DNA of 64,000 nt, taken from the NCBI RefSeq assembly GCF_024502345.1, contig NZ_JALDNN010000001.1, one strand, 5' to 3'. Shown here piece after piece: positions 15,988-64,000 of this stretch. Each line of letters starts with the position of its first letter. The stretch's first letter is position 1. Under the pieces are notes generated by a model. It saw only the letters and a program-made list of their open reading frames with translations, searched no databases and had not been told where the DNA came from. The translations under genes and the position numbers were made by a program. Origin of the DNA: Escherichia coli. Lineage in GTDB: Bacteria; Pseudomonadota; Gammaproteobacteria; Enterobacterales; Enterobacteriaceae.

Positions 15988-16027
15988 TATCAAAGGCCCA
16001 TGGGGATCGGCTGTGGGCCTGTGTTAA

Positions 16028-16228
16028 TTAGTGGTTATTCGCTGCCAGATCGGCTTCGCTTAGCTGGGTGGCCGCGAGCACCAGGTCACGATCAAAGCCC
16101 TGTTCCAGCATGCGCAAAGCAATTTTAATGGCTTGTTCATGCATGCCTTCCTGCAAACCTTCTAATTTACCTTCTTGCCAGCCAATTTGATGTCCTTCCT
16201 GCCGTAGCCGTTCAGCATTAGTCATCAA
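16028..16228 (-). CDS. ypaA: YpaA, 66-aa standalone copy of the Rpn C-terminal domain (partial duplicate of the rpnE 3' end)
   Basis: [45 protein letters not shown]... is near-identical to the last ~70 residues of the adjacent 323-aa ORF. Confidence 0.7.
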   Translation of the reverse strand: MMTNAERLRQEGHQIGWQEGKLEGLQEGMHEQAIKIALRMLEQGFDRDLVLAATQLSEADLAANNH

Positions 16229-16237
16229 TCTCTCCTT

Positions 16238-17209
16238 TTAATGACAGTTCGGAATATCAGCATCAGTGAGTTGGGTTGCCGCCAGCACAATCTCACGTTC
16301 AAAGCCCTGCTCCAGCATGCGCAAGGCAATTTTAATGGCTTGCTCATGCATGCCTTCCTGCAAACCTTCTAATTTACCTTTCTGCAGACCCTCCAATTTA
16401 CCTTGCTGCAAACCTTCTAATTTACCTTCCTGCCAACCAATTTGATGTCCTTCCTGCCGTAGCCGTTCAGCAATAGTCATTAATCTCTCCTTTTGTAGTG
16501 GTGAACGTTCGGCAATCTCCTGAATAAAACGGGTGAAACGGGAGGTATCGCCGCATTGCAGCAGATAATTAAACAGTGTTTGTAGCTGGCTGTCATTAGT
16601 GAAGCCTCTAACCAAAAGCGTGGTGATCCTGTCGACCATACCGATTAAATCGCGGTCGCGAATATGCTTTTGAATCAGTTCCAGCAGAGCTATACGCCGA
16701 TGTTGCATGATCTCATCGTCAGGTACGATGGTGATATCCACCAACGGAAAAGCTTCGGTGTACAACTGCCGGGCAAGTTGCGGATCGTCAAACTCATCCA
16801 GCCAGTTGAGTGAGTACGGGTAGGGCGAGGTTTCGCCATGATAAAACAGCAACGGCACCACCAGCTGGACTCTGTCATAGCCTTTGTCCAGGTGACGCTG
16901 CATGGCGGCAGTGGCATAGCGCATTAGCCGAAAAGCCATATTCTTTTCTGCAGAGCTTTGATGTTCAATCACGCAGTAGATATAGCCGTCACCGTCGCTG
17001 GTTTCCACGGACCACAAAACATCCGAGTAGTAAGCGCGTAAACTTTTTTCAATAAAACTAGTGGGTTCCAGGCGTAAGGTTTGCAGGTTGCAAAGCTTGC
17101 GCAGTGGTTCTGGTAAATGTATTTCGAGAAAATCCCGTGCGGTTTCGGGTGTGAACATAAAGGTTTTAAACACCGCATCATGCGGGGAGGAGGTTGTTGA
17201 TTCGGTCAT
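16238..17209 (-). CDS. rpnE: Rpn-family recombination-promoting nuclease / transposase_31-like protein RpnE (YfaD), 323 aa
   Basis: ORF 323 aa ([19 protein letters not shown]...), recognised as YhgA/Rpn family; C-terminus contains the GKLEGLQ repeat. Confidence 0.85.
16361..16432 (-). repeat. three in-frame tandem copies of a 24-bp unit (CAAACCTTCTAATTTACCTTCCTG and variants) in the rpnE 3' region, encoding (Q/K/E)GKLEGLQ x3
   Basis: Seen directly: units at 16361-16384, 16385-16408 and 16409-16432; ypaA carries a single copy (16154-16177). Confidence 0.9.
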
Positions 17210-17402
17210 GGTTGTCCGTCACCTGATATTTATGATGACGCGACATTACGGTTATCCCAGGCCTTTGACATCTGCCAGTTTCAGCCTTTGCGAGACGTTT
17301 TCAGAGGAATTTTCACTGCGTTGCAACGCATACATGGTGCGTGGAATCGCGCTCGCAAAAATGCCCGATAAGCAATGTGCTTACCGGGCATCAAAAGGTC
17401 GG

Positions 17403-48845: not shown

Positions 48846-51695
48846 TTGAAATACCTTGCTTCTTTTCGTACAACCCTGAAAGCCTCGCGCTACATGTTCA
48901 GAGCATTGGCGTTAGTGCTCTGGCTGTTGATTGCTTTTTCATCCGTTTTTTACATCGTTAATGCGTTACATCAGCGAGAATCGGAAATTCGTCAGGAATT
49001 TAATCTGAGTTCCGATCAGGCTCAGCGCTTTATTCAACGCACCTCTGATGTGATGAAAGAGCTGAAGTACATCGCCGAAAATCGCTTATCGGCAGAAAAC
49101 GGTGTGCTTTCCCCGCGTGGACGAGAAACGCAGGCGGATGTGCCTGCGTTTGAACCGCTGTTTGCCGACTCCGATTGTTCAGCAATGAGTAACACCTGGC
49201 GAGGTTCTCTGGAGTCATTGGCGTGGTTTATGCGCTACTGGCGCGATAATTTTTCTGCGGCTTACGATCTCAATCGGGTATTTTTAATCGGCAGCGATAA
49301 CCTCTGCATGGCCAATTTCGGTCTGCGTGATATGCCAGTGGAACGCGATACCGCGTTGAAAGCGTTGCATGAACGCATCAATAAATATCGAAATGCACCA
49401 CAAGATGATAGCGGCAGTAACCTCTACTGGATCAGCGAAGGTCCGCGCCCTGGCGTCGGGTATTTTTACGCGTTGACGCCAGTTTATCTGGCGAACCGGT
49501 TGCAGGCGCTTTTGGGTGTCGAGCAGACCATCCGGATGGAGAATTTTTTCTTACCTGGTACGTTGCCGATGGGGGTTACCATTCTTGATGAAAATGGTCA
49601 TACCCTGATTTCGCTTACCGGACCAGAAAGCAAAATTAAGGGCGATCCTCGCTGGATGCAGGAACGCTCCTGGTTTGGCTATACGGAAGGGTTCCGGGAG
49701 CTGGTGCTGAAGAAAAATCTGCCACCCTCATCGCTAAGCATCGTTTATTCGGTGCCGGTTGATAAGGTGCTGGAACGCATTCGCATGTTGATCCTTAACG
49801 CAATTTTGCTGAATGTGCTTGCCGGAGCTGCATTGTTTACTCTCGCGCGGATGTACGAGCGGCGTATTTTCATTCCGGCGGAAAGCGACGCCCTGCGACT
49901 GGAAGAACATGAGCAGTTCAATCGCAAGATTGTCGCCTCCGCGCCAGTGGGTATCTGCATTTTGCGTACCGCTGATGGCGTCAATATTTTAAGTAACGAA
50001 CTGGCGCATACCTATCTCAATATGCTTACGCATGAGGACCGCCAACGACTGACGCAAATTATCTGTGGGCAGCAGGTCAATTTTGTTGATGTCCTGACCA
50101 GCAACAATACCAATCTGCAAATCAGCTTCGTCCATTCGCGCTATCGTAATGAAAACGTGGCCATTTGTGTGCTGGTGGATGTTTCTTCGCGCGTGAAGAT
50201 GGAAGAGTCGTTGCAGGAGATGGCACAAGCAGCGGAACAGGCGAGCCAGTCAAAATCGATGTTCCTTGCCACCGTCAGTCATGAGCTGCGAACGCCGCTG
50301 TATGGCATTATCGGTAACCTGGATCTGTTGCAAACCAAAGAGTTACCGAAAGGCGTCGATCGTCTGGTGACGGCAATGAACAACTCTTCCAGCCTGTTGT
50401 TGAAAATTATCAGCGATATTCTCGATTTCTCGAAGATTGAATCAGAACAGTTGAAGATCGAACCGCGTGAGTTTTCACCGCGTGAAGTGATGAACCACAT
50501 CACCGCCAACTATTTACCGCTGGTGGTACGCAAGCAGTTAGGCTTGTACTGCTTTATTGAACCGGATGTGCCAGTGGCTTTAAATGGCGACCCGATGCGT
50601 TTACAGCAGGTCATCTCCAACCTGTTGAGTAACGCCATAAAATTCACCGATACCGGCTGTATAGTTTTGCATGTTCGCGCTGATGGCGATTATCTCTCTA
50701 TCCGTGTTCGCGATACCGGCGTGGGGATACCGGCGAAAGAAGTGGTGCGCTTGTTTGATCCCTTCTTCCAGGTCGGAACGGGCGTACAGCGAAACTTCCA
50801 GGGGACCGGTCTGGGTCTGGCGATTTGTGAAAAACTGATCAGCATGATGGACGGCGACATCTCGGTAGATTCAGAACCGGGAATGGGCAGCCAGTTTACC
50901 GTGCGTATTCCGTTGTACGGCGCTCAGTACCCGCAGAAAAAAGGCGTGGAAGGGTTGAGTGGTAAACGCTGCTGGCTGGCGGTCCGCAATGCGTCGCTCT
51001 GTCAGTTCCTGGAAACCAGTTTGCAGCGCAGCGGCATCGTCGTAACAACATACGAAGGGCAGGAACCGACTCCCGAAGATGTGTTAATTACTGACGAGGT
51101 AGTGAGTAAAAAATGGCAGGGTAGAGCGGTAGTGACCTTCTGTCGTCGCCATATTGGTATTCCGCTGGAGAAAGCGCCAGGGGAGTGGGTACACAGTGTG
51201 GCTGCTCCGCATGAGCTACCGGCATTGTTGGCGCGTATTTATTTGATCGAGATGGAGAGCGACGATCCTGCTAACGCTCTGCCGTCGACGGACAAAGCGG
51301 TCAGCGATAATGACGATATGATGATTCTGGTCGTGGATGATCATCCGATTAACCGACGTCTGCTGGCAGATCAGTTGGGATCGTTGGGCTATCAATGTAA
51401 AACCGCGAATGATGGCGTCGATGCGCTTAATGTACTTAGCAAGAATCATATTGATATCGTGCTTAGCGACGTCAACATGCCAAATATGGATGGTTACCGC
51501 TTGACGCAACGCATTCGTCAGTTGGGACTGACGTTGCCGGTAATCGGAGTAACTGCTAATGCGTTGGCTGAAGAGAAGCAGCGGTGTCTGGAGTCCGGTA
51601 TGGACAGCTGCCTGTCGAAGCCGGTAACGCTGGATGTGATAAAACAGACGCTGACGGTATATGCCGAGAGGGTCAGGAAATCGCGGGAATCGTAG
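48846..51695 (+). CDS. rcsC: hybrid sensor histidine kinase RcsC (949 aa, TTG start)
   Basis: HisKA H-box SHELRTPLYGI, HATPase domain and C-terminal receiver (LVVDDHPINRRL...DVNMPNMDG). Confidence 0.96.
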   Translation: MKYLASFRTTLKASRYMFRALALVLWLLIAFSSVFYIVNALHQRESEIRQEFNLSSDQAQRFIQRTSDVMKELKYIAENRLSAENGVLSPRGRETQADVPAFEPLFADSDCSAMSNTWRGSLESLAWFMRYWRDNFSAAYDLNRVFLIGSDNLCMANFGLRDMPVERDTALKALHERINKYRNAPQDDSGSNLYWISEGPRPGVGYFYALTPVYLANRLQALLGVEQTIRMENFFLPGTLPMGVTILDENGHTLISLTGPESKIKGDPRWMQERSWFGYTEGFRELVLKKNLPPSSLSIVYSVPVDKVLERIRMLILNAILLNVLAGAALFTLARMYERRIFIPAESDALRLEEHEQFNRKIVASAPVGICILRTADGVNILSNELAHTYLNMLTHEDRQRLTQIICGQQVNFVDVLTSNNTNLQISFVHSRYRNENVAICVLVDVSSRVKMEESLQEMAQAAEQASQSKSMFLATVSHELRTPLYGIIGNLDLLQTKELPKGVDRLVTAMNNSSSLLLKIISDILDFSKIESEQLKIEPREFSPREVMNHITANYLPLVVRKQLGLYCFIEPDVPVALNGDPMRLQQVISNLLSNAIKFTDTGCIVLHVRADGDYLSIRVRDTGVGIPAKEVVRLFDPFFQVGTGVQRNFQGTGLGLAICEKLISMMDGDISVDSEPGMGSQFTVRIPLYGAQYPQKKGVEGLSGKRCWLAVRNASLCQFLETSLQRSGIVVTTYEGQEPTPEDVLITDEVVSKKWQGRAVVTFCRRHIGIPLEKAPGEWVHSVAAPHELPALLARIYLIEMESDDPANALPSTDKAVSDNDDMMILVVDDHPINRRLLADQLGSLGYQCKTANDGVDALNVLSKNHIDIVLSDVNMPNMDGYRLTQRIRQLGLTLPVIGVTANALAEEKQRCLESGMDSCLSKPVTLDVIKQTLTVYAERVRKSRES

Positions 51696-51893
51696 GACGG
51701 ATAAGGTGTTTATGCCGCATCCGGCATTCAGTGCAAATGCCAGATGCGACGCTGACGCGTCTTATCTGGCCTACTTTAATGTAATCTGTTGAAATAATGG
51801 GAATCGTAGGACGGATAAGGCGTTTACGCCGCATCCGGCAATCGGTGCAAATGCCAGATAAGACACTAACGCGTCTTATCTGGCCTACAGATG
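51685..51893. repeat. REP/BIME array between convergent rcsC and rcsB, organised as a 114-bp tandem duplication that includes the last 11 bp of rcsC
   Basis: GGGAATCGTAGGACGGATAAGG...GCCGCATCCGGCA...GCGTCTTATCTGGCCTAC occurs twice, starting at 51685 and 51799. Confidence 0.8.
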
Positions 51894-55545: not shown

Positions 55546-55638
55546 AAAAAAAACCGGATGCGAGGCATCCGGTTGAAATAGGGGTAAACAGACATTCAGA
55601 AATGAATGACGGTAATAAATAAAGTTAATGATGATAGC
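55546..55638 (-). ncRNA. micF: MicF small regulatory RNA (antisense regulator of ompF mRNA), including its intrinsic terminator
   Basis: Minus-strand sequence GCTATCATCATTAACTTTATTTATTACCGTCATTCATTTCTGAATGTCTGTTTACCCCTATTTCAACCGGATGCCTCGCATCCGGTTTTTTTT matches MicF as I recall it; divergent from ompC. Confidence 0.9.
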
Positions 55639-55793
55639 GGGAGATATTCTAGTTGCGAGTGAAGGTTTTGTTTTGACATTCAGTGCTGTCAAATACTTAA
55701 GAATAAGTTATTGATTTTAACCTTGAATTATTATTGCTTGATGTTAGGTGCTTATTTCGCCATTCCGTAATAATCTTAAAAAGTTCCCTTGCA

Positions 55794-63660: not shown

Positions 63661-63665
63661 GTATG

Positions 63666-64000
63666 CTGATAAGACGCGCCAGCGTCGCATCAGGCAACCG
63701 GCTCGGGCGTTAGATGTCGGATGCGGCGTGACCGCCTTATCCGACCTACGGGGTGGAGCACTTCACAGCGGTGTAGGCCTGATAAGACGCGTCAGCGTCG
63801 CATCAGGCAACCGGCTCGGACGTTGGATGTCGGATGCGGCGTAACCGCCTTATCCGACCTACGGGGTGGAGCACTTCACAGCGGTGTAGGCCTGATAAGA
63901 CGCGTCAGCGTCGCATCAGGCAACCGGCTCGGACGTTGGATGTCGGATGCGGCGTAACCGACTTATTCGACCTACGGGGTGGAGCACTTCACAGCGGCGT
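63666..64000. repeat. BIME-type REP array: at least three tandem copies of a 113-bp unit, continuing beyond the window end
   Basis: Unit starts at 63666, 63779 and 63892; each contains REP palindromes (CTGATAAGACGCG(C/T)CAGCGTCGCATCAGGC, GGATGCGGCGT(A/G)ACCGCCTTATCCGACCTAC); explains the duplicated small ORFs in the six-frame track. Confidence 0.85.

Follow-up and report, generated by a model that had tools for sequence, protein, structure and literature searches.

Escherichia coli rpnE-ypaA as a probable Rpn gene-within-a-gene locus with a second, free-standing small gene and uncoupled repeat numbers

Rpn genes form a recently described toxin-antitoxin and phage-defence class whose toxin genes contain the coding sequence of their own antitoxin. 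The small proteins, RpnS, are translated from internal starts and block the toxic nuclease RpnL (Zhong et al. 2023, PMC10400941). Only for RpnA/B and RpnC is the small protein known to inhibit, and only for the plasmid-borne RpnP2 is phage protection known (Zhong et al. 2023, PMC10400941). The 4-aa repeats of RpnS, including those of RpnSs, lie in the dimerisation helix, beginning 8-20 residues after the internal Met, and vary between E. coli strains; in RpnC, inhibition is lost when the two forms differ by a single 4-aa unit, and repeat number is proposed to govern the pairing of long with short forms (Zhong et al. 2023, PMC10400941). The same authors compare this with the TAEL repeats of the EcoR124I/EcoR124II HsdS proteins, in which the number of 4-aa repeats in a helix alters specificity, as proposed for Rpn; in HsdS, however, the distance between DNA half-sites depends on how long the helix is, whereas in Rpn its length is proposed to determine which proteins pair. 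For rpnE, the internal start was mapped in K-12 by Ribo-RET, where similarity to YpaA was also noted (Meydan et al. 2019, bioRxiv 520783), and by SPA tagging (Zhong et al. 2023, PMC10400941). In the same study ypaA was described as a second copy of RpnE_S and named rpnE_Ss, and its protein was detected in K-12 after SPA tagging (Zhong et al. 2023, PMC10400941). Unlike RpnA-D, which are toxic and SOS-inducing, overexpressed K-12 RpnE caused no toxicity, no stimulation of recombination and no SOS induction (Kingston 2017, PMC5350276), and RefSeq calls K-12 RpnE "inactive". It is possible that RpnE_S within that construct, together with ypaA presumably present on the host chromosome, masked any toxicity of RpnE.

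Here we compare with these systems a locus within a 64,000-nucleotide stretch of E. coli DNA (the window). An earlier note on the window had referred to work on Rpn C-terminal domains made as separate proteins that restrain the toxin, and this work exists and says so (Zhong et al. 2023, PMC10400941). The rpnE-ypaA arrangement and its variable 4-aa repeats were likewise published in 2023, and the observation is thus real, not new. The present analysis sees for itself the anatomy, family membership, variation, purifying selection and repeat uncoupling of the locus, and adds to the published work the 12-bp unit, the uncoupled counts, the selection on ypaA, the ~40% of genomes with a single gene and the divergence of the tails. 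It is the rpnE-ypaA locus on the E. coli chromosome, and its allele is that of an O125ac:H10-like strain: the window is not K-12 sequence and is 100% identical to E. coli O125ac:K+:H10 strain C 236-04A. K-12 has in common with it the yfaU-ypaA-rpnE-glpC order, the internal Shine-Dalgarno site and ATG, the junction and the domains, with 722/729 nt identical in the rpnE N-terminal domain. K-12, however, lacks extra units in rpnE (299 aa) and carries one in ypaA (61 aa), against 6 and 2 here, and relative to K-12 the YpaA of this locus carries I3N (MTNAERL) and an additional in-frame TTG one codon 5' of the ATG. We put at roughly 85% the probability that the locus exemplifies the Rpn gene-within-a-gene toxin-antitoxin system as published, with a second, free-standing small gene in addition (Table 1).

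Table 1. Positions of rpnE, ypaA and their elements in the window.
Feature	Position	Strand	Basis
rpnE full-length ORF (RpnE_L), 323 aa	16238..17209	(-)	ORF list; NCBIfam NF007418, TIGR01784; K-12 synteny
N-terminal Transposase_31 / PD-(D/E)XK domain, residues 8-209	16583..17188	(-)	Pfam PF04754, E=1.4e-86
Internal Shine-Dalgarno site GGAGAG for rpnE_S start	16485..16490	(-)	read within AAAAGGAGAGATTAATG
rpnE_S, in-frame internal ORF, 80 aa, putative intragenic small protein (antitoxin in published model)	16238..16480	(-)	sequence
rpnE repeats, six 4-aa units beyond the minimal K-12 allele (= three 24-bp units)	16352..16423	(-)	Tandem Repeats Finder; strain comparison
rpnE-specific tail, 20 aa	16241..16300	(-)	comparison of two tails
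ypaA Shine-Dalgarno site GGAGAG, 2 nt past rpnE stop codon	16230..16235	(-)	sequence
ypaA (= rpnE_Ss), free-standing 65-aa RpnS paralogue, likely ATG start	16028..16225	(-)	ORF list; NF007418 match
ypaA repeats, extra 4-aa units KLEG LQEG, two in number (= one 24-bp unit)	16145..16168	(-)	alignment, strain comparison
ypaA-specific tail DRDLVLAATQLSEADLAANNH	16031..16093	(-)	comparison of tails, single-gene strains, outgroups
GC-rich hairpin between convergent yfaU and ypaA	15994..16020	.	terminator search

On its profile matches, the rpnE product is assigned to the Rpn/YhgA-like PD-(D/E)XK nuclease family, scoring 717.7 bits against NF007418 (cut-off 583) and 176.7 bits against TIGR01784 (cut-off 52.1). 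Residues 1-256 of the RpnA profile NF007361 align to RpnE 1-256, and D11, D63, E82, Q84, R94 and D165, numbered as in RpnA, are all present in the 323-aa translation, D165 within a PDDE motif. D11, D63, E82 and Q84 are residues whose mutation inactivates RpnA (Kingston 2017, PMC5350276). RpnE_L carries an N-terminal PD-(D/E)XK nuclease domain with all the RpnA-essential residues; it is a candidate toxin that RpnE_S or YpaA may inhibit, with a putative role in phage defence. The long and short forms of RpnA and RpnC resemble those of RpnE in the PD-(D/E)XK domain with its essential residues, in a similar start of the small protein and in the 4-aa tract, but RpnA, unlike rpnE, has no downstream free-standing copy. 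In another rpn gene the small-protein unit is tandemly duplicated directly downstream of its parent, as ypaA is (Zhong et al. 2023, PMC10400941), and this duplicate is of independent origin from ypaA (Zhong et al. 2023, Fig. S3C).

The RefSeq product name of rpnE ("ISNCY family transposase") and the Pfam name Transposase_31 would instead make rpnE an ISNCY-type insertion sequence transposase and the duplication a by-product of transposition. We consider this extremely improbable. The locus occurs in 5420 of 5426 complete E. coli genomes, in the same position next to glpC, chromosomal in all and on a plasmid in none. A search for flanking inverted repeats gave none, and the sole pair it returned, 28 nt long with a 75% match, lies within the gene; the duplication copies in tandem precisely the stretch from Shine-Dalgarno site to stop inside the gene, and Zhong et al. 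2023 argue against transposon status.

In the gene-within-a-gene arrangement that we favour, the C-terminal helical domain of RpnE would also be made alone as RpnE_S, from the ATG at 16480. Specifically, AAAAGGAGAGATTAATG spans 16494-16478 and includes the Shine-Dalgarno site and the ATG at 16478-16480, in frame with rpnE; this internal site is kept in nearly all loci examined, one locus having a single change directly 3' of GGAGAG. Downstream, ypaA is a tandem copy of exactly the RpnE_S unit: it repeats the 3' end of rpnE head to tail, beginning at the internal Shine-Dalgarno site and ending with the stop codon. The context of its ATG, AAAAGGAGAGATTNATG, is identical to that of the rpnE internal start, and YpaA matches positions 244-308 of the NF007418 profile. 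The 66-aa ORF that the earlier note had taken as nearly repeating the RpnE C-terminal domain is indeed a duplicate, but reaches 16228 (66 aa) only if counted from a TTG, and the ATG at 16225 is its likely start, giving 65 aa. Similarly, a head-to-tail duplication of about 200 bp, given there as 16028-16237 versus 16238-16470, is real, except that the upstream copy runs to ~16494. In the MAFFT alignment, 16028-16245 aligns to 16238-16500 with a mean column identity of 84%, and repeat finding within the window returns matches between the copies of 94 nt (95%) and 130 nt (87%). Counted on the same alignment, identity is ~94-96% from the Shine-Dalgarno site to mid-domain and only ~65% over the last 63 nt.

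The junction of the duplication is exact, the rpnE stop TAA (16238-16240) overlapping the A-run that precedes the ypaA Shine-Dalgarno site. This junction, CCGAACNGTYATTAAAAGGAGAGATTRATG, is unchanged in every E. coli two-gene locus examined as well as in E. fergusonii; of the two cryptic-clade Escherichia loci, one differs by one base in the Shine-Dalgarno site. Because the junction is common to all two-gene loci, barring one base in one cryptic-clade locus, the duplication appears to have a single origin. A metagenome scan with the junction pattern returned only three loci, of which one was a chimera at the end of a contig, and did not enlarge the sample. ypaA begins 12 nt past the rpnE stop, and a terminator between the two genes was not found, the hairpin downstream of ypaA being the sole terminator-like element in the locus; because of this 12-nt gap without a terminator, ypaA most likely shares transcripts with rpnE_S. 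A sigma-70 consensus scan of the locus found no promoter, the internal promoter from literature dRNA-seq was not locatable by sequence, and an Rfam search gave no match in the locus.

The small protein may share the RpnS fold (three-helix bundle, HTH_Rpn_C). Its first 13 residues match the RpnA_S crystal chain 7TH0 at 12/13 positions in a PDB sequence search that is weak overall (E=0.19), and the repeats of rpnE_S fall after these 13 residues. Pfam PF27070 HTH_Rpn_C is precomputed on all close homologues of rpnE_S, and a single-sequence AlphaFold model (pLDDT 80) gives helices 3-57 and 61-73 with no resolved three-helix bundle. By analogy with RpnA_S, the GKL/EGLQ tract would sit where helix 1 of the crystal structure has its dimer interface.

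The repeat tract starts at residue 20 of the small protein, and Tandem Repeats Finder reports the rpnE array (16353-16438) with period 24, 3.6 copies and 83% matches. Each 24-bp unit consists of two 12-bp (4-aa) halves, xGKL and EGLQ; tract length differs across strains by 12-bp steps, which makes 12 bp rather than 24 bp the step of variation. The earlier note had described an in-frame 24-bp unit present three times in rpnE (16361-16432) and once in ypaA, where it lies at 16146-16169; its counts and frame hold, while its span is shifted by one codon and the true unit is half as long. Its suggestion that the repeat is hypervariable is borne out. Copy number is not invariant: complete genomes carry 0-8 extra units in rpnE and 0-6 in ypaA, with up to 8 among database proteins, and nearly all repeat changes keep the reading frame. 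The tract expands and contracts in frame by 12 bp, most likely through slippage or unequal recombination, and in the published model the number of units would decide the pairing of long and short forms. Matches of the tract to FliH and Yae1_N are low-complexity matches to the EG-rich repeat and reflect no homology.

RefSeq marks ypaA as a pseudogene or as "incomplete, missing N-terminus"; this label and the transposase name of rpnE both conflict with published work. If the label were right, ypaA would be a dead remnant of the tandem duplication, and the repeat variation neutral slippage in a gene of no further consequence. In line with such a reading, ~40% of genomes are without a separate ypaA and K-12 RpnE is inactive in published assays. 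However, the ORF, Shine-Dalgarno site and ATG of ypaA are intact in 40 of the 40 two-gene loci scored. For ypaA, over 57 non-repeat codons in 21 alleles, pN/pS is ~0.10, compared with 0.12 for rpnE_S and 0.07 for the N-terminal domain, which points to purifying selection on ypaA despite the pseudogene annotation. Differences in the ypaA-private tail are mostly synonymous, and gene conversion from rpnE is unable to maintain that tail. Additionally, the repeat changes are nearly all in frame and the protein has been detected. A dead remnant is, on these grounds, very unlikely.

A maintained ypaA could be redundant as a cognate antitoxin, supplying more of the same inhibitor against the resident RpnE_L, a reading close to that of the earlier note. 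Identity to rpnE_S is 94-96% in the head (Shine-Dalgarno site to W16) and in the core helix, the start context is common to both, the protein is made in K-12, and a haplotype with 4 extra units in each copy (4,4) occurs in the EPEC E2348/69 lineage. Across 14 complete-genome haplotypes, which are a sample rather than an exhaustive count and are phylogenetically non-independent, the rpnE and ypaA counts are nonetheless equal in one only (1.43 expected by chance) and correlate with a Spearman rho of 0.23; if half of the haplotypes were expected to match, one match in 14 would have P=0.0009. The haplotype of this locus is 6 in rpnE and 2 in ypaA. The repeat counts of the two copies are uncoupled; we do not claim that matching is avoided. 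That the numbers never match was true of the first 17 strains, which proved a sampling effect once the E2348/69 lineage was found to be (4,4), one in 14 being close to chance. The combinations (0,5), (2,5) and (6,5) were left out of the statistics, since they occur only in short-read or metagenome assemblies, where the near-identical flanks of the two copies make mis-phasing possible; (2,5) exactly mirrors (5,2), a haplotype seen in complete genomes, and (0,5) is carried by no complete genome.

Taken together, the counts of 6 versus 2 here, the single match among 14 and the loss of inhibition by a one-unit mismatch in RpnC argue against YpaA as a simple backup antitoxin for the resident RpnE, bearing in mind that the same-number rule is known for RpnC only, with a one-unit change, and may not transfer to RpnE. 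The last 20 residues of the two proteins also differ strongly, and we regard the redundant-antitoxin reading as unlikely. A free-standing copy of the small protein does stand as published, under the name rpnE_Ss and made in K-12; the role of backup for the resident toxin is what the unit counts disfavour. Because repeat numbers are uncoupled and tails differ, we infer that YpaA may be an RpnS paralogue that is kept by selection and pairs with a specificity of its own. ypaA may also act as a homologous partner in recombination that yields single fused genes.

The tails of rpnE and ypaA are deeply diverged and have different evolutionary histories. Between the two tails pS is 0.68 and pN 0.22, versus 0.23 and 0.01 in the rest of the copies. 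The rpnE-type tail shows zero synonymous polymorphism in 39 loci, and is identical at 58-59 of 60 nt in E. fergusonii and in a second, cryptic-clade non-coli Escherichia. A tblastn search against plasmids for a donor of this tail returned only distant Rpn tails (<=53% identity) and mislabelled E. coli chromosomes. The ~40% of genomes without a separate ypaA (24 among 60 genome matches taken at even intervals) carry a single gene with a ypaA-type tail, and three outgroup Escherichia are also single-gene with a ypaA-type tail.

These patterns raise the possibility, which we hold only tentatively, that ypaA is a recombination cassette storing an alternative tract and tail, so that fusion or tract exchange gives rpnE a new specificity. 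Single-gene alleles (L008, L017-L019) join the rpnE N-terminal domain, sometimes with an rpnE-type repeat block, to the ypaA tail, and such fusions were noted too by Zhong et al. 2023 (PMC10400941). An identical 60-nt block lies in rpnE of some assemblies and in ypaA of others, and head and core are far less diverged between the copies than the tails, as gene conversion predicts. On the other hand, (0,5), (2,5) and (6,5) come only from the assemblies that could be mis-phased, the 4-unit block common to both copies is explicable by descent from a (4,4) ancestor, and the single-gene forms may be ancestral rather than fusions, the three outgroup species being single-gene. A variant that we hold to be somewhat more doubtful is that ypaA is the displaced original 3' end of rpnE, kept as a cassette, and that a segment running from Shine-Dalgarno site to stop and bearing the diverged tail was placed before it and spread among Escherichia by recombination. 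Were it true, recombination between the copies would switch the tract and tail of the nuclease, and hence the specificity of toxin-antitoxin pairing, and the locus would be a small specificity-switching system, like shufflons or silent cassettes.

Within the Rpn arrangement with its free-standing small gene, the uncoupled counts, the selection on ypaA and the histories of the tails sharpen, rather than answer, the questions of whether RpnE_L is toxic, which partner YpaA has and what drives repeat change. PADLOC did not recognise the proteins as defence proteins, returning only a spurious "putative invertase" match (E=0.002). In its distribution, the rpnE locus is core-like, whereas most defence genes have a patchy spread.

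The rpnE–ypaA pair is flanked by yfaU (rhmA) and glpC on a stretch of E. coli chromosome that is otherwise unremarkable, and synteny and homology confirm both gene names proposed in the earlier note. The allele in the window is not that of K-12, which aligns in two pieces and whose locus is 84 bp shorter. Specifically, when 15990-17260 was searched by megablast against 5,426 complete E. coli genomes, a 100% match was limited to the lineage of O125ac:K+:H10 strain C 236-04A, and only 25 records were at least 99% identical. MAFFT alignment, a repeat search (94 nt at 95% and 130 nt at 87% identity) and Tandem Repeats Finder bear out the head-to-tail duplication and the difference in repeat number between rpnE and ypaA that had been noticed from the sequence, with the upstream copy ending at about 16494 rather than at 16470. 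The homology starts at an A-run and Shine-Dalgarno site (AAAAGGAGAGATT[A/G]ATG), ends at the stop codon, and is broken by a 48-nt gap that corresponds to two extra 24-bp units in rpnE. Counted on the MAFFT alignment, the two copies are approximately 94-96% identical as far as the "EQGF" codons and approximately 65% identical in the last 63 nt. Because the rpnE stop codon overlaps the A-run of the ypaA Shine-Dalgarno site, the duplication is an exact head-to-tail one, with a unit running from Shine-Dalgarno site to stop codon. The feature is thus real and was correctly recognised. In the window's lineage, the spacer reads ATTG instead of ATTA, which creates an in-frame TTG ahead of the ypaA ATG, and YpaA carries an I3N change (MTNAERL) seen in none of the other loci examined.

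Features of the window and their coordinates
Feature	Coordinates	Strand	Remarks
rpnE ORF	16238..17209	minus	323 aa
ypaA ORF	16028..16228	minus	66 aa from TTG, 65 aa from ATG at 16225
Aligned copies (MAFFT)	16028-16245 with 16238-16500
24-bp array in rpnE	16353-16438		3.6 copies (Tandem Repeats Finder); one unit in ypaA
rpnE stop codon	16238-16240		TAA; overlaps A-run preceding ypaA Shine-Dalgarno site
rpnE-type tail	16241-16300
In-frame TTG of ypaA	16223-16228		one codon 5' of ATG
naRNA4 (REP-derived) elements, two clusters	51695-51885; 63664-63972		ordinary E. coli, unrelated
MicF	55546-55639		upstream of ompC; ordinary E. coli, unrelated to rpnE-ypaA

RpnE belongs to the Rpn family, matching Pfam Transposase_31 (PF04754) over residues 8-209 (E=1.4e-86), NCBIfam NF007418 (717.7 bits; cut-off 583) and TIGR01784. 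YpaA corresponds to positions 244-308 of the 308-position NF007418 profile, and PF27070 (HTH_Rpn_C) is precomputed by Pfam on close homologues. The sole PDB sequence match for the small protein, to RpnA_S (7TH0), is weak overall, but the two agree at 12 of the first 13 residues, and the repeats follow directly. Matches of RpnE residues 236-294 to FliH (NCBIfam) and Yae1_N (Pfam) were rejected as low-complexity artefacts of the EG-rich repeat tract, and could mislead automated annotation. The residues whose mutation inactivates RpnA (D11, D63, E82 and Q84), as well as R94 and D165, are all kept in the window's RpnE, so nothing obvious in the sequence accounts for the annotation "inactive". K-12 RpnE was found inactive for recombination, toxicity and SOS induction (Kingston et al. 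2017), and the construct used there also encodes RpnE_S, the small product of the internal start.

Meydan et al. (bioRxiv 520783) located in-frame internal starts in each of the five K-12 rpn genes and pointed out the near-identity of the internal rpnE product to YpaA. Zhong et al. 2023 (PMC10400941) demonstrated that RpnS small proteins are produced, bind the long RpnL and block its toxicity and nuclease activity; that RpnA_S is a dimer with its long first helix as the interface; that RpnC_S inhibits RpnC_L only at equal repeat numbers, a rule also summarised in the accompanying commentary; and that plasmid-borne RpnP2 protects against phage. They explicitly describe ypaA as a second RpnE_S copy (rpnE_Ss) derived from rpnE, detected it by SPA tagging, and note that it can be lost via deletion or fusion. 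The literature thus already contains both the observation and its reading, in support of the proposal that separately made Rpn C-terminal domains restrain the nuclease; the exceptions are the putative antitoxin role of YpaA and the putative toxicity of RpnE.

RefSeq (PGAP) labels rpnE an "ISNCY family transposase" and ypaA a pseudogene, a fragment or "incomplete; missing N-terminus", with a few records naming ypaA a "Rpn/YhgA-type helix-turn-helix domain-containing protein". The transposase label and the pseudogene or fragment labels are at odds both with what has been published on RpnL/RpnS and with the purifying selection found in this analysis. In each of the 40 two-gene loci that were scored, ypaA has an intact ORF with its Shine-Dalgarno site and ATG preserved. 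Its non-repeat codons give a pN/pS of 0.10, as against 0.12 in rpnE_S and 0.07 in the nuclease domain. The private tail of ypaA, which gene conversion from rpnE cannot maintain, shows 22 synonymous versus 9 non-synonymous differences summed over allele pairs. Judged by its sequence, ypaA behaves as a maintained coding gene despite its pseudogene annotation.

Repeat numbers were compared between the loci of 25 complete E. coli genomes, chosen mostly at regular intervals along a ranking of 5,420 matches, and further assemblies and Escherichia outgroups were added to these. Both tracts vary in 4-aa (12-bp) steps and odd unit numbers occur, so the in-frame 24-bp repeat, although present, consists of two true units. 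Complete genomes have 0-8 units beyond the minimal tract in rpnE and 0-6 in ypaA, and free-standing database proteins have up to 8. Written as (rpnE, ypaA) extra units, the haplotypes are (0,1) in K-12, (0,4), (1,4), (3,1), (4,0), (4,4) in the EPEC E2348/69 lineage, (5,0), (5,1), (5,2), (6,2) in the window, (6,4), (7,1), (8,4) and (8,6). Only one of these 14 distinct complete-genome haplotypes is matched, against 1.43 expected under random pairing (P=0.0009 for at most one match in 14 if half of the haplotypes were constrained to match), and the two numbers do not correlate significantly (Spearman rho 0.23). The repeat numbers of rpnE and ypaA are therefore uncoupled, which, if the RpnC rule applies, would argue against a role for YpaA as just a second dose of cognate antitoxin. 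One 60-nt block of five units occurs without a difference in rpnE of complete genomes and in ypaA of several draft or metagenome assemblies, which would point to exchange between the two genes. Its appearance in ypaA may well reflect wrong phasing during assembly instead: the assemblies concerned were built from short reads, rpnE and ypaA are nearly identical on either side of the block, haplotype (2,5) is simply (5,2) with its values exchanged, and (0,5) is found in no complete genome.

All E. coli two-gene loci and E. fergusonii have an identical junction, ...CCGAACNGTYATTAAAAGGAGAGATTRATG, and it recurs in a cryptic-clade Escherichia, with one base altered in the Shine-Dalgarno site of one of the two loci; this shared junction indicates that the duplication arose once. 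In an evenly spaced sample of 60 genomes, scored by matching places per record, a proxy verified on fetched loci, 24 were single-gene, 35 two-gene and one disrupted by IS2. The ypaA-type tail ends all single genes in the E. coli loci examined and those of E. albertii, E. whittamii and Escherichia sp. MOD1-EC7003. Certain single genes, such as that of locus L017 (rpnE-type repeat block with ypaA tail), look like fusions, and others may be ancestral. Between the two tails pS is 0.68 and pN 0.22, versus 0.23 and 0.01 in the remainder of the duplicated unit. This mosaic suggests either that the 5' two-thirds of an old duplication were homogenised by gene conversion or that the upstream tail was imported and recently spread; a search of plasmids for a donor of this tail found none. 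Across 39 loci the rpnE-type tail is free of synonymous polymorphism, and it is identical at 58-59 of 60 nt in E. fergusonii and the cryptic-clade Escherichia, two lineages in which the nuclease domain has only 96% and 92% identity, respectively, to that of the window. It is thus near-identical across species although flanking DNA is 4-8% diverged, unlike the ypaA tail, whose divergence follows species; a sweep, horizontal spread or nucleotide-level constraint could account for its uniformity. What remains of interest is that the repeat numbers are uncoupled, that a "pseudogene" is under purifying selection and that the tails differ in history; these points lead to clear experiments rather than to a new kind of system.

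Several other loci vary in structure. In three E. albertii-type assemblies (L072-L074; locus coordinates 773-1686), a 242-aa nuclease-domain ORF ends exactly where a 61-aa small ORF starts, so the toxin domain and the small protein appear to be two overlapping genes, not one gene with an internal start. In E. coli UTME-10 (locus coordinates 261-2133), an IS2 element replaces the rpnE 3' end, truncating rpnE and separating ypaA from it, and rpnE is frameshifted or split in three further loci (L030, L063 and L064). In E. fergusonii (two loci, L068-L069), the pair adjoins glpC as in E. coli, and its far side carries an IclR-like fragment and a MoCF-biosynthesis gene instead of the rhamnonate genes (yfaU, yfaV).
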